The notes beneath the pieces were generated by a model. That model did not search any database, had not been told where the DNA came from, and saw only the letters and a list, made by a program, of their open reading frames with translations. 64,000 nucleotides of DNA from an uncultured archaeon. Its GTDB lineage: Archaea; Asgardarchaeota; Thorarchaeia; Thorarchaeales; Thorarchaeaceae. The stretch's first letter is position 1. Every line of letters starts with the position of its first letter. Location of the stretch: assembly GCA_964473825.1 (NCBI GenBank), contig CAYYQL010000003.1:42627-106626 (forward strand), written 5' to 3'. Below are positions 7,101-19,100 of the stretch, piece after piece. The position numbers and the translations under genes were made by a program.

Positions 7101-7592
7101 TGTCCCGCCGGTGCCATCACAATGAAACACTTCACAGATGACCAGATTCTGGCCCAAATCCGCGCAGCTCTCTCTGACATGCCTGCGAACCAACCGCGAA
7201 TCCTTACAATAGTCTGCAACTGGTGCTCGTATGCCGGGGCGGATAGCGCTGGTGTATCGAGGTTTCAGCAGCCCCCTACCGTCCGCGACATCCGTGTGAT
7301 GTGTACCGGGAGAGTAAGCGTCACCCACATATTGGAGGCATTTCGACAGGGAGCTGATATGGTCTGGATATCGGGTTGTCACTTCGGCGACTGTCACTAC
7401 GTTGATGGAGTTTCCGCATTTGAACGTAGATATCTCATAGCAAAGAAGATCATTGAGAAAGCGGGATTGGAGCCGGAGCGATTACAGTTCACTCATATTA
7501 GCGCAAGTGAGGGTGCTATCTGGGCGGAGAAGGTCAAGGAACTCTCTGAACTGGTTGAACGACTGGGGCTCACCCCCCTGAGAAAGAGGTAG
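4152..7592 (+). CDS. hdrA: Double-module heterodisulfide reductase subunit A fused to C-terminal MvhD domain
   Basis: Two GxGxxG FAD motifs, LDKTFPTLDCSMC, inserted 2x[4Fe-4S], VGVFVCSCG, EAHPKLRPV, C-terminal ferredoxin, then CNWCSYAGAD / RVMCTGRV / GCHFGDCHY of MvhD; ATG 4152 follows GGAGTGA. Confidence 0.95.
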   Translation: MAGKPIVIIGAGIAGIRASLDLADMGVKVFLVEREPSIGGHMAQLDKTFPTLDCSMCIMGPWMVDASRHPNIEILSYSEVSEVTGDKGDFTVKVLKHTRRVDPEKCTGCGDCQRVCPIEIPNEYDVGLKMRKASYIPFPQAVPNVATIDIENCIQCMTCVNSCKAEAIDFSIPDETLEINAGAIILATGYQLLDPSEVKEYGYGRYPNVVSALEYERMVSASGPTGGVIMRPSDGIEPHRIAFIQCVGSRDVNHCAYCSKICCTYATKEAIITKEHTPEVHIDLLYNDMRAFGKGFEEFLVRGENDYGINYVKGLPSEIIEDPKTRGLIVRHSDAKGHEVLDDHYDLVVLCPAMVPNENAELHETLGIDVDQYGFVHGPAGHIESVMTTVPGIYMCGSVNQPKDIPDSVAQGSAAAALAIQDIDLPERRETEELTEADLDMMTAEPRVGVFVCSCGINIAGTVDVDEVRNYADSLPGVVYTENLLYSCSSDAQVVIKDAIKEHDLNRVVVASCTPRTHEPLFRSTIEEAGLNKYLFEMANIREHCSWIHQGAKDEATSKAMDLVRMAVAKSRLLEPQEEAVTDIEPSALVIGAGVAGMSAAKAIAEKGFKVYIVEKEDEVGGYLNNLVSVNFDFRSASDVVKELRDEISSIETIDLMLESEVVDARGSIGDFEVTIKTGKKKTDLKVGVVIVATGAHALEEEGLYGFKKIPEVITEEEFNHRINEDALPADATYAVIHCAGSREDESLEGARTWCSGICCTVALEHTLELLEKHPGSRVFHLYRDLRVHYAGEDKYREARKKGVVFIRFDKDSPPEVKKGHSAAIRVEVLDQILGAKLNLDVDYVVLATAMIPPETNKHLGEIFKIPTNMSGFFMEAHPKLRPVDFQTDGIYVAGTATAPKPIDEAIAQGRGAAARALIPLVSGIRKAEAIVSVVDPEVCVGCGTCEINCSYNAIEVIPGDGGHDYAMSNPVLCQGCGKCAAGCPAGAITMKHFTDDQILAQIRAALSDMPANQPRILTIVCNWCSYAGADSAGVSRFQQPPTVRDIRVMCTGRVSVTHILEAFRQGADMVWISGCHFGDCHYVDGVSAFERRYLIAKKIIEKAGLEPERLQFTHISASEGAIWAEKVKELSELVERLGLTPLRKR
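7416..7592 (+). repeat. Copy 1 of diverged 177-nt direct repeat (3' end of hdrA-mvhD)
   Basis: Encodes AFERRY...PLRKR*; 50/58 aa identical to 12879-13055 by hand alignment. Confidence 0.9.
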
Positions 7593-12878: not shown

Positions 12879-13055
12879 GCCTTTGAGAGAAGATATGCAA
12901 TAGCCAAGAAGATAGTTGAAAAGGCTGGCTTGGAACCAGAGCGTCTGCAATTCACACAGATTAGTGCCAGTGAAGGCCCCATCTGGGCTGAGAAGGTCAA
13001 GGAACTCTCCGAGCTCGTTGAGAAACTCGGACCGAGCCCGCTTAGAAATAGGTAG
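12879..13055 (+). pseudogene. Orphan 3' end of hdrA-mvhD (copy 2 of diverged direct repeat)
   Basis: AFERRYAIAKKIVEKAGLEPERLQFTQISASEGPIWAEKVKELSELVEKLGPSPLRNR*; lacks all MvhD Cys ligands. Confidence 0.85.
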
Positions 13056-13128
13056 AGAAATCGGCCAGCCTTCACTGGCCTTTATGCTCCAAGTATTAGC
13101 AGATCAATGGAAAAAACCAGAGGTGTCG

Positions 13129-13191
13129 TTATTTCTTTGGTTTCTTCTTCTTCTCGTCGGTGGTCTTCTTTCCCTTCTTGTCCTTTGCCAT
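13129..13191 (-). CDS. 20-aa Lys-rich micropeptide, copy 1 (MAKDKKGKKTTDEKKKKPKK)
   Basis: ATG, TAA, SD GAGGTGA 8 nt upstream; conserved in copy 2 with synonymous changes. Confidence 0.75.
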   Translation of the reverse strand: MAKDKKGKKTTDEKKKKPKK

Positions 13192-13634
13192 TATTATTGT
13201 CACCTCTGTGGCAGTCGTGTTGCCCCTAGTAGCGTGCTGCAGTTCCCCAATCCCTTGAAGAGATTGTGGACACAGTCTGCTTGCGAGCAACGTAACAGAA
13301 ACACTGCGAATCGTATACGCTGTCGTCCCTCAATTTACGCACCCAATAATGCTCAAGCAACTCACTATAGACTGCATATTGTTGTATTCTAGGTCTTCAG
13401 CAGAATCCTCTATTGTAGGTTCAGAATCACACTAATCATATCTGATATTGACTCAATCAGAGCAATACTATGCCAGTCAATCTGTCACTAAGAATAGCAG
13501 ACTGGGTGGAGAATGACCATTCTATTCTATCGCTGAACCGCCCTCTATGGATGTTAGATAGAGAGATTGGCCAGTTCATGCCGGCCTCCCTCCTCTATGT
13601 TGTTCTGAGTGATGTGAGAACATCGCATCTGCCG

Positions 13635-13697
13635 TTACTTCTTCGGTCTCTGCTTTTTCTCGTCGGTGGTCTTCTTTGCCTTGTTGTCCTTTGCCAT
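13635..13697 (-). CDS. 20-aa Lys-rich micropeptide, copy 2 (MAKDNKAKKTTDEKKQRPKK)
   Basis: ATG, TAA, SD GAGGTGA at identical spacing; 16/20 aa identical to copy 1. Confidence 0.75.
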   Translation of the reverse strand: MAKDNKAKKTTDEKKQRPKK

Positions 13698-14083
13698 TGT
13701 CAGTGTCACCTCTCTGGCAGTCGTGCTGCCCTGATTCGCCTCCAGATCACTAATTCAGCTGTTTGAAATCCTATGACAGGTCGCGTCAGAGCAATCTTCT
13801 TGAGAAATGCGATTCCTATACGCCATTTCCCCAAGATTACAAGGGTCCATTGAGTCACGTTGACTTTGAGAAGGTACGAAATCTCTGTAGTGTGTCATTC
13901 TAAGAGAATCATCACGAATCAGAACTGGACGAGTTCAATGTTGACAACGGAATGGAGCATCGAGAGAATGCCCGCTCGCGGATTCTGTCACCTATGAGCT
14001 AACTGCATCTGCCTCCGACGCTATTGATATAAGCGGAGCAAGAAACGAGACCTGAGTGTCAGCAGACCCAAGAAGTGATATGC

Positions 14084-16105: not shown

Positions 16106-19100
16106 CTACTCCCGGAGCATCTCTTCTATCTGATCCAAAAAGCTGTTCTCCCGCCACCATCGCAGGTCCCTTGCACCAGTTGGACATATCGCACAGCATG
16201 CACCACACCCCTCACATCGCATCTCATCGGTGACGCTCTTCTTAACCCCGGGTGACACCTCAACCATTGATACAGCATCGTATGGGCAAATCTCAGAATA
16301 ATGGCAGAGGTCACAGCCGACACAGAGGTCTTGGTCCACTTCTGCAACCAGTAGCTCGATCTCCACGGTGCCCATATTCAGGGGTGCAGTGGCTTCGCTG
16401 GCCGCTCCCCGTGCTTGATTGATGGAGTCACTGACATTCTTTGCGTAGGTTACACCGAGGAACACTCCTGGAACCGTAGTTTCTACAGGTCTGAATTTCA
16501 TGTGCATCTCTGCCAGGAAACCGTCTTGGCTCCTGTTGATTCCAAGTGCTTTCACAAGCTCGTTCACATCGTGTGGCGCCTCAAGTCCTACAGCAAGAAT
16601 GACCATGTCTGATTTTATCTTGAAGGTTTCCTGAGAGAGGGTATCATAAACGGTGACTATTGCCTCATCCGAATCTTCGGCTTTCTCCACTATCACAGGT
16701 CTCTCCCTGACCCATCGCAGGTAGGTGACCCCCTTCTGCCGATTTTCTCTCCACATCTCTTCCATGCCATTGGCAAAGGGACGGATGTGTTCTTTGTATG
16801 CGGAGAAGATCTTGATGTCTGGAAACATCTCGTTAAGCTCGTTTTGCATGGCTATCACAGCCGAGCAGCAAACACGGGAGCAGTACCGATTGCCCTCTCC
16901 AGGACTCTGTCTTGAACCAACACAATGGATGAAGACCGGGTTCTTTGGTGGTTTCTTCAGCTCGCCATTCTTCATCATTCTTTCAAGGTCAAGTGTGGTT
17001 ATGACATTGTCAAGCTTGCCCCATCCATATTCTCCCTCTTCGGGTTCATATGTGTCCGTTCCGACCGTAATCACCATTGTACCTATATTGTATGGCTTTC
17101 TCTCTCCAGTTTCCACATTCTCAATCATGATCTCGTAGCTTCCATACGCTCCATCGCGATCTACCACTTTGGAGTTAAGAAGTACGGTGATCAGATCCTC
17201 CTCATTCACCCTCTCGATAAGGTCGTCCACTATCTCCTGAGCGGATTGCATGTCGGGGAATATACTATAGAGCTCGTTCAGTCGTCCGCCGAGGCAGTTC
17301 GTCTTCTCCACGAGTATCACCTTGAAACCCTTTCTGGCTATATCCAGAGATGCAGTCATCCCGGAAACTCCTCCCCCGACGACCATGACGGTTCTTACCA
17401 CATCTACTGACTTCACGGGCACCTCTTCATTGTTTATCGCCTTGGCAACACCACTTCGAATCATATCCTGAGCCTTTTCCTGTCGCTCATCAGGTGGTGC
17501 ATTCTTGTTGACCAGTGTGAGCTGCTCGCGGAGGCCGACGGGGCCAACTAAATAGTACCCTGACAGACCTGCCCTTTCAAGCGCTCCTCTAAAGGTCCCC
17601 TCATGTTGGAGGGGTGAACAGGAGCCGACAACTACACGGTTCAAGTTGTGCTCTTTGATGGCCTCGGTGATGAGTTCCTGGCCGGGGTCGCTACACATGA
17701 AGATGTAGTCAGTGCTGTATGCAACATTTGGAAGGTCCTTCGCCCATTCAGCCAGAGCTGGAGAATCAATGACATCTCCAATGATTCCGCCGCAGTGACA
17801 GATGAATACCCCAACACGTGGTTCATCGCCTACTTCAATCGGGGTTATCTCTTCCTCCTGCTTTGGTTCAGGCAAGGGCAGAATCGAATGCGCCGCCATT
17901 GCTGCACCTTTCCCTTCGTTAACAGTATCTGTACCGTCCTTGGGACCATGAATGCATCCAGCCATGAATATGCCCGGCCGGCTCGTTTCCAGTGCTGCAG
18001 AGTTTGCCTGTTTCTCCTTCACCCAACCAGTGGCTTCGTCCAAGTCAATGTTCAGTTTCTTCATCAACTCCACATGGCCATCATTCGGTCTGAAACTACC
18101 GTTGAGAACCACCATTGAAACCCCCTCGAGTTCCTGAATCTCACCGGTGTCCGTATCTTCAATTTTGACAAAGAGGTCGTTTGTGCTTGGATCCTCCGAT
18201 ATCTCGGCCACTCGTCCGCGAATGAAGTTTATCCCCTGATTGTGTTGTGAGTCCCAGAGGAACTCTTCTAGAGCCTTTCCCGCGGTGCGGAGATCCATGT
18301 AGGTGTAGATTATTTCACAGTGCTCCTCGGGATAGTGCATCCTCGTGACCTGTGCAAGTTTGAGGCCAAAAGAACAGCAGACCTTGTTGCAGTGGTCGCT
18401 GTACCCCTGAATATTCTCGCGAACATCACGGCTTCCCACACAGTTGACAAATAGGATTCTCTCGGGCTCTCGTCCATCAGAGGGTCTTACCATATGGGCA
18501 TCTGTGGGTCCAGTTGGATGGGTCTGCCTGTCGTATTCTAAGGATGTCACTACATTAGGAAACACACCATACCCGTATTCACTGTAGTCATAGGGTTTGT
18601 ATTCTTGGAACCCGGATGCGACTATGATGGAACCAACATGGAGGTCATAGAGCTCGTCTTCATCCTCATAGTTGATGCAATCCTGAGGACATACTCCTGC
18701 GCATGTTCCACATCCAATGCAGGCCTCCTTATCGATTGTCGCCACAAGCGGAATCTGCTGAGCGAAATTCATGTAGATGGCCTTTCTCAAAGATTGTCCG
18801 AAGTCATACTCATTCGGCACCTCGACCGGACAAGCTTGGATACAGGTCTGACAACCAGTGCAGGTTTCTTCGTTGACATATCTCGCCCTTTTTCTAATTG
18901 TGACTGTGAAATCACCAGCCCTGCCTCTGACTTCTTCAATTTCGGACAGTGCATGGATCGTGATGTTTGGATGCCGCCCCACGAATGAGGTCAACGGCGT
19001 CATAACACAGGCTGAGCATTCAAGTGCTGGAAAAATCTTGTAAATCGCAACATAGTTACCTCCTATGTTGACGGTTCTCTCAATCAAATGGGCTTGGTGT

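Follow-up and report, generated by a model that had tools for sequence, protein, structure and literature searches.

Two tandem 20-codon genes on the minus strand

Two open reading frames (ORFs) of 63 nt, each comprising 20 codons between an ATG start and a TAA stop, lie on the minus strand at positions 13129-13191 (copy A) and 13635-13697 (copy B) of the window, by which we mean the whole 64,000-nt stretch of Thorarchaeaceae DNA that was analyzed. The distance from start to start is 506 nt. The encoded peptides are MAKDKKGKKTTDEKKKKPKK (copy A) and MAKDNKAKKTTDEKKQRPKK (copy B), and lysine codons account for 11 of the 20 codons in copy A and for 8 of the 20 in copy B. The elements that make up the two units are as follows:

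13129-13191, minus strand: micropeptide gene A, 20 codons plus TAA, 11 Lys, net charge of about +8 (read from the sequence)
13635-13697, minus strand: micropeptide gene B, 20 codons plus TAA (read from the sequence)
13200-13206, minus strand: Shine-Dalgarno (SD) sequence GAGGTGA of gene A, 8 nt before the ATG
13706-13712, minus strand: SD sequence GAGGTGA of gene B, 8 nt before the ATG
13313-13318, minus strand: TATA-like element (GCGTATAC box) of gene A, 127 nt before the ATG, conserved between the copies
13816-13821, minus strand: TATA-like element (GGCGTATAG box) of gene B, 124 nt before the ATG, conserved between the copies
13192-13292, minus strand: putative 5' leader of gene A, about 100 nt, fold z of -1.7; same architecture in the paralogue and in the sister species
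13285-13290 with 13219-13226, minus strand: predicted closing helix of the gene A leader, UUGCUC pairing with GGGGCAA
13209-13213 with 13186-13190, minus strand: predicted hairpin across the SD and start codon of gene A, UGCCA pairing with UGGCA
13698-13796, minus strand: putative 5' leader of gene B, fold z of -1.7
From 13794, with a segment that extends to 13725, minus strand: predicted closing helix of the gene B leader, UUGCUCUGA pairing with UCAGGGCAG
13715-13719 with 13692-13696, minus strand: predicted hairpin across the SD and start codon of gene B, UGCCA pairing with UGGCA
13111-13116, minus strand: T6 run 13 nt past the gene A stop (read from the sequence), a possible archaeal oligo-T terminator
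13063-13080, minus strand: 3' hairpin of unit A, GGCCAG-N6-CTGGCC, with a pyrimidine-rich tail
13569-13586, minus strand: 3' hairpin of unit B, GGCCGG-N6-CTGGCC, which a flanking AGAGGAGGGA/UCUCUCUAUCU helix lengthens and which aligns with the unit A hairpin; z of -2.8 for the 3' region

Both ORFs are contained in a 102-nt direct repeat with 87% identity. Seven codons differ between the copies, three by synonymous and four by non-synonymous changes. In their flanks A and B are far more diverged; only a GCGTATA box upstream and a GGCC.G...CTGGCC hairpin on the 3' side stand out as alike. An earlier, sequence-only reading of this DNA had described two tandem ORFs for 20-residue peptides, alike in length, in start and stop codons and in the spacing of GAGGTGA, with three synonymous changes among seven altered codons and with much more diverged flanks. 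All of this was borne out, with the box and the hairpin as exceptions to the divergence of the flanks.

No third copy was found in the 3.27-Mb genome, in which the next best match had an E value of 0.01. When the micro-ORFs of the genome that have an ATG start and a strong SD were ranked by their Lys/Arg content, A and B came first and third, and they were the only Lys-rich ones among them. AAG made up 82-88% of the lysine codons of genes A and B, as compared with 69% genome-wide, and this codon choice carries no information. An antisense ORF of 158 aa overlaps the locus; the long plus-strand ORFs that run over A and B are antisense readings of the lysine codons, and they are not conserved in the sister genome G002.

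The amino acid sequence is under selection

Five independent pairs of orthologues were compared (gene B in G000/G002, gene A in G000/G001, and one pair each from genera g9, g3 and g6, the last being G007/G073). Together, these pairs held 17 synonymous and 2 non-synonymous changes, where only about 17% (about one in six) of the changes would be expected to be synonymous (binomial P of about 1e-11). The amino acids encoded by gene A were identical in both sister species, with synonymous changes only, and gene B differed from its orthologue in G002 by three synonymous changes and no non-synonymous change. The ORF was more conserved than the 3' spacer in all seven pairs in which the two were compared, and was at least as conserved as the leader in six of seven, the leader being ahead by 2 points in the g3 pair. 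Moreover, the recurrence of the same ORF, in frame, in other genera puts it far beyond chance.

The sequence-only reading had seen the pattern of changes as compatible with selection on the peptide, which the counts above support, and had pointed to frameshifts and lost start or stop codons at homologous loci as a check; none was seen, and start, frame and stop were kept at every one of these loci. We are highly confident that A and B are genuine genes. At the level of genome comparison, the data show a protein-coding gene family under purifying selection in Thorarchaeota, with a tandem duplication in the window's genus and no fixed neighborhood.

A patchy family in Thorarchaeaceae

Related ORFs with an intact start codon, SD and stop codon were present in 21 of 86 Thorarchaeaceae genomes, in 7 of 16 genera, and also on metagenome contigs. 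Both copies, in the same tandem order, were found in two sister species, and six further genera of the same GTDB family have members. The members were located by DNA and pattern searches; a six-frame profile-HMM search with the peptide alignment was less sensitive than the DNA patterns and missed known members. A strict pattern, run on one genome per species across 185,579 prokaryotic species, matched at 22 places, and while all 16 Asgard matches were in-frame micro-ORFs, none of the six bacterial matches was. Patterns based on the leader motif and on the N-terminal motif added genus g7 and a second type in G024, and no further genera. The family was missing from several Thorarchaeaceae genomes of 97-99% completeness. 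Thus, being found in 21 of 86 genomes and missing from several nearly complete ones, it is patchy rather than universal and is not a core component.

A scan of metagenomes yielded further members of the Thor type. Two of them form another tandem pair, independent of the first, on contig L190 (Ga0307426_1004163). The two genes of this pair (L190:1734-1796 and L190:2118-2174) are 384 nt apart, with a separate TATA box, leader and hairpin for each; one leader is g15-like, whereas the other is of the g6/g3-like type.

The ORFs of the family have 17, 18, 19, 20, 21, 24, 25 or 26 codons, their size changing by whole codons only, and ATG, GTG and TTG are all seen as start codons. Frame, start, stop and SD were kept at more than 30 loci, and (G)AGGTGA preceded every member retrieved by searches that did not require the full motif. 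Members of the family begin with Met, then a small residue, which is Ala, Gly or Ser and in rare cases Val, and then Lys; a body rich in Lys, Pro and Gln follows and, in most members, a C-terminal KPKK. Inside genera the peptide sequence is strictly conserved, the residues other than Lys included; between genera its middle is replaced. The TTDEKK stretch is confined to the window's genus, and the middles are rich in Q, P and A in other genera. The sequence-only reading had proposed a conserved KKTTDEKK core as a site of modification. With the stretch found in a single genus, and with M-x-K and mostly KPKK as the shared elements, that proposal was not upheld. Its wider view, that of genuine, selected and unannotated genes for polycationic peptides, stood; a core conserved across the family and an eL41-like identity (see below) did not.

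A longer subtype of 24-26 codons is represented by L273 (G024:C91, about 16524-16620) and by L270 and L271 (in G047 and G048). Its peptides terminate with ...TGSSK or ...KPKTSTPR, and TTG serves as the start codon of one member; leader motifs are shared with the family, and a terminator hairpin is present. G024 carries both subtypes, at separate loci.

Promoter, leader and terminator

In every genus, the start codon of the units is preceded by a TATA element at a distance of about 118-137 nt; for two of the units, the regular expression matched first at a site further upstream. The element reads GTTTATAT in most genera and GCGTATA in the window's genus. From its position, a 5' leader of about 100 nt is predicted, the start of transcription being deduced from the same element. 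Past the stop codon, a spacer of 40-65 nt is followed by a GC-rich hairpin, the position of which is kept in all genera and the sequence of which is genus-specific. The hairpin of unit A scored as a terminator on both strands, and probably serves both the micro-gene and a convergent remnant of hdrA-mvhD that is described below. The best explanation of this layout is that each copy is a complete and free-standing micro-gene, with a TATA promoter, a leader of about 100 nt, a strong SD, the ORF and a terminator-type hairpin, from which transcription is predicted. The sequence-only reading had noted neither this completeness of the units, with their conserved leaders, nor the patchiness of the family. 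The 3' end of the 16S rRNA, which would carry the anti-SD sequence, was not found in the whole assembly G000.

The two leaders in the window have strongly diverged from one another, yet both are predicted to fold into a closed domain. In each, the 5' end is paired to a stretch located some 30 nt ahead of the SD, and this is followed by the 5-bp UGCCA/UGGCA hairpin. Leader identity inside genera was 66-98%, which is at least that of the 3' spacer and greater than that of the DNA upstream of the TATA box. The motifs GUACAG and CCAAGGCA are shared across genera, and leader motifs such as UUUUCUGUACAGAC and GUCCAAGGCA recur in g6, g3 and g7 and in part in g9 and g15. This long and conserved leader suggests translational control or an additional function at the RNA level.

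A helix at the same position, with a different sequence, can be drawn in other genera, and in 8 of 17 units the native strands of the closing helix outranked nearly all cross-genus combinations (at most 2 of 14-16 were as good). The energy of the leader duplex was no better than that of shuffled sequences, RNAalifold gave no consensus leader fold across genera, and covariation in the best leader alignment (g6-type) was seen at 1 of 26 predicted pairs. Because support for the helix is mixed, we regard the leader fold as putative.

A g3 gene for a membrane protein of at least 133 aa (L233, L235, L236 and L237) also has a conserved TATA box, followed by about 110 nt of leader and by GAGGTGA. Such leaders are therefore not unique to the micro-gene.

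Genomic neighborhood

In the window's genus and in g9, and in these two genera only, the unit lies between hdrC-hdrB, which is divergent, and hdrA-mvhD, which is convergent. In other genera the unit adjoins a UPF0047 gene, a DUF362 gene, or a racemase gene together with one that is flavodoxin-like. No such ORF was present in the gap next to hdrC in 27 further genomes of the family, so the hdr position is not ancestral, and since the neighbors differ between genera, the association with hdr is incidental. In five genera (g1, g9, g2, g6 and g3) the downstream gene is convergent, and nothing is therefore controlled in cis. No link of the neighborhood to ribosome or chromatin genes was seen.

Adjoining unit A, at positions 12879-13055 of the plus strand, is a start-less copy of the last 58 codons of hdrA-mvhD, which matches the C-terminus of FlpD/MvhD. 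Its intact counterpart is at 7416-7592, also on the plus strand, and 50 of the 58 residues are identical. About 5.3 kb of genes with no Pfam match separate the remnant from the end of the intact gene. In the sister genomes an intact hdrA-mvhD is convergent with the pair of micro-genes, so that the window's genome has an insertion.

Comparison with known proteins and RNAs

Searches with E values of up to 10 gave no family for either peptide in Pfam (hmmscan), none for the window peptides and their relatives in NCBIfam, including the models for the small ribosomal proteins bS22 and bL37, and no match among 177,635 distinct PDB chains (phmmer). With Rfam 15, three matches were listed for the window region at E up to 10, with E values of 2.2-7.1 and far below the gathering thresholds, and there was none for five related loci at E up to 1. 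Seven forms of the peptide were looked up by exact match among 15 billion proteins and none was present, and no account of a peptide of this kind from Asgard archaea turned up in full-text literature searches. The micropeptide family is undescribed in the literature and the databases that were searched, in agreement with the sequence-only reading, in which no known family had been recognized; its general kind, that of unannotated polybasic micro-proteins, is known.

Two small ribosomal proteins were considered as candidates. eL41, or eS32, is an Arg/Lys-rich helix with Trp, Leu and Met that packs between h27, h44 and h45. The sequence-only reading had suggested an eL41-like peptide; however, there was no match to PF05162, for which a genome-wide search returned only a noise hit in another ORF, and the composition is also wrong, with no hydrophobic or aromatic residue and with prolines near the C-terminus. 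Some members of the family start with MAKDKN, which we take to be close to the N-terminus of eL29. A six-frame search with PF01779 in five genomes that carry the micro-gene matched no micropeptide locus, and eL29 was also rejected.

Both eL41 and bS22 are 55-65% basic, bL37 is a further tiny basic ribosomal protein, and the class was found only by cryo-EM (PMC10085706); aS33 and aS34 are lineage-specific additions to archaeal ribosomes (PMC11698992). Like eL41 (eS32), bS22, bL37 and Thx, which have 24-33 residues, are often unannotated and lineage-restricted, and bind rRNA by charge, the micropeptide is tiny, polybasic and unannotated. In contrast to these proteins, which are Arg-rich and helical and have hydrophobic or aromatic residues, it is rich in Lys, Pro, Gln and Thr and has no hydrophobic residue. 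It also differs from them in its patchy occurrence within one family (21 of 86 genomes) and in the location of its genes away from ribosomal genes.

The DNA-binding motifs of histone H1 are of the S/T-P-K-K type, which the K-P-K-K and PKAKPK stretches of the micropeptide resemble. The tails of the Asgard histones HLoB/HMpB are 16-32 residues long, contain over 30% Lys and have a pI close to 10.5 (bioRxiv 10.64898/2026.07.02.735847). With these tails and with the C-terminal domain of H1, the micropeptide has in common a similar length, a Lys-rich composition and the character of a disordered polycation. H1 and the histone tails are, however, parts of proteins with a fold, whereas the micropeptide is free, has neither a histone fold nor a winged helix, and shows no sequence homology to them. 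Since it lacks a globular domain and its 17-26 residues contain only one or two KPKK/PKPK motifs, its resemblance to H1 is one of composition only.

Two reports describe the spRNAs of Methanosarcina mazei, for example sP26 (23 aa), as stand-alone short archaeal transcripts that encode peptides of less than 30 aa missed by annotation (bioRxiv 10.1101/2020.05.06.080432 and 10.1101/2025.10.28.685009). The micro-genes share this layout as far as it can be read from DNA, with a TATA element at a conserved distance, a hairpin past an ORF of less than 30 aa, and transcripts predicted to be monocistronic. sP26 is reported to act on glutamine synthetase, to which it binds. The micropeptide is unrelated to it in sequence, and its leader is long and conserved.

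Possible functions of the peptide

Lys makes up 45-60% of the peptide, the net charge of which is about +7 to +9. No hydrophobic residue is present, and a proline lies near the C-terminus; the peptide should therefore be a disordered polycation. The specificity of methionine aminopeptidase is such that a small residue at position 2 fits removal of Met. Since Ala, Gly or Ser occupies this position in nearly all members, the initiator Met is probably removed.

In the explanation that we favor overall, to which we assign a probability of about 0.5, A and B would be independent micro-genes for a polycationic peptide, with control mediated by the leader. Our best guess as to how the peptide acts, to which we give roughly even odds and which draws on its composition, the strong SD and the promoter, is that it binds nucleic acid by charge. 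The high expression proposed in the sequence-only reading is a prediction from these same features. A free polycation would bind polyanions in this manner, whether RNA and ribosomes or DNA and chromatin. Synthesis of the peptide would be set after transcription, via the leader, possibly through occlusion of the SD and start codon or through feedback of the peptide on its own RNA. Strict conservation inside genera together with a replaced middle between genera is the pattern expected for charge-based binding of polyanions. Precedents for such a role are the tiny basic ribosomal proteins and the lysine-rich tails of Asgard histones described above. The patchy distribution and the lack of a link to ribosomal genes argue against a core ribosomal role.

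It also seems possible, with a clearly smaller chance, that the RNA is the main effector. The unit would then specify a small regulatory RNA, about 230 nt in length and classed as a dual-function sRNA or 'spRNA', that recognizes its targets by base-pairing of the leader, and the peptide would be of secondary importance. For an ORF of 60 nt the leader is long, its conservation of 66-98% inside genera and its motifs shared across genera would suit such a role, and the unit has its own promoter and terminator; peptide-encoding spRNAs are, moreover, known from M. mazei. A functional peptide is compatible with an RNA of this type. However, the amino acid sequence is clearly under selection, in six of seven pairs the leader is no more conserved than the ORF, and neither an Rfam match nor a target was found.

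A similarly tentative alternative is that the peptide acts on a specific protein, either as a small regulator like sP26 or as a decoy or substrate for lysine-modifying enzymes. Strict conservation inside genera of residues other than Lys, such as the TTDE of the window's genus and the small residue at position 2, is in line with a protein partner. A 23-aa archaeal regulator serves as a precedent (bioRxiv 10.1101/2020.05.06.080432), and enzymes that modify lysine-rich tails exist in Asgard archaea (bioRxiv 10.64898/2026.07.02.735847). Against this, no conserved neighboring gene hints at a partner, the hdr context being found in two genera only, and replacement of the middle between genera is a better fit to charge-based binding than to a specific interface.

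Less likely again is a role of the peptide as a free, trans-acting 'histone tail' or linker-histone-like component of chromatin, which would be abundant, would neutralize and compact DNA and might be acetylated or methylated by the lysine-modifying enzymes of Asgard archaea. The only histone-fold gene found in the genome (G000:C4:144854-145036) is short and has no lysine-rich N-terminal tail, and a single tail-less histone leaves room for a chromatin role of the micropeptide. If the peptide did act in this way, it would represent an unfused alternative route to tail-based chromatin regulation near the origin of eukaryotes.

That the ORF is a lysine-sensing leader peptide or attenuator, the translation of which would decide termination at the downstream hairpin, appears improbable. 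With 9-12 Lys codons per 17-21 codons and a GC-rich hairpin 40-65 nt past the stop, the micro-gene does recall the bacterial his, phe and thr leaders (hisL, pheL and thrL), in which a short ORF crowded with the codons of one amino acid also precedes a hairpin. Unlike these, it has no downstream gene to control, as no gene on the same strand follows the hairpin and the next gene is convergent (g1, g9, g2, g6 and g3) and differs between genera; unlike these, too, it has a selected peptide sequence, the termini and the residues other than Lys included, and an archaeal host. No alternative antiterminator pairing was evident in a non-exhaustive search, and we know of no description of leader-peptide attenuation in archaea.

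Finally, the ORF might be suspected to have arisen by chance in purine-rich DNA or to belong to a conserved repeat that does not code for protein, given its shortness and low complexity, peptides absent from protein databases and an overlapping antisense ORF of 158 aa, but this is very hard to reconcile with frame, start, stop and SD kept at more than 30 loci, indels of whole codons only, an excess of synonymous changes (P of about 1e-11), no frameshifted or start-less orthologue and antisense ORFs that are not kept in G002.

Genes as short as A and B fall below the length limit of every gene caller, and a Lys-rich peptide is invisible to trypsin-based proteomics, so that a conserved component of Asgard cells can go unseen. 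The peptide is small enough for chemical synthesis, which makes its target directly testable. If the peptide binds ribosomes, the archaea closest to eukaryotes would have a further ribosomal element specific to their lineage; if it binds DNA, this would bear on the origin of lysine-rich chromatin proteins.

Similar micro-ORFs outside the family

A few further micro-ORFs were noted in the course of the searches. A 17-codon ORF of Jordarchaeum (L114:3730-3780), which adjoins a P-type ATPase, is a possible analogue; its leader is not shared with the family, and we do not claim homology. In L070 (G105, of another Asgard family), two K/R-rich micro-ORFs of 19 and 15 codons lie within 3 kb, at about 1511 on the plus strand and about 3005 on the minus strand. 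Both have strong SDs, their leader is not that of the Thor family, and they may also be analogues.

On metagenome contigs L176, L192, L197, L200, L213 and L216 we found an unrelated-looking family of 18-codon micro-ORFs that have a GTG start, are rich in Lys, Pro and Gly and end in QKPKK. An upstream TATAAT-like box and a strong hairpin past the stop accompany these ORFs, which are probably bacterial. Lastly, high-GC soil contigs (L178:87-158, L206 and L183:2601-2657) contain KKPKK-rich micro-ORFs of 19-24 codons that start with MAKGK. They gave no NCBIfam match, Lys codons are improbable by chance in DNA of such high GC content, and these ORFs may belong to a bacterial counterpart class.
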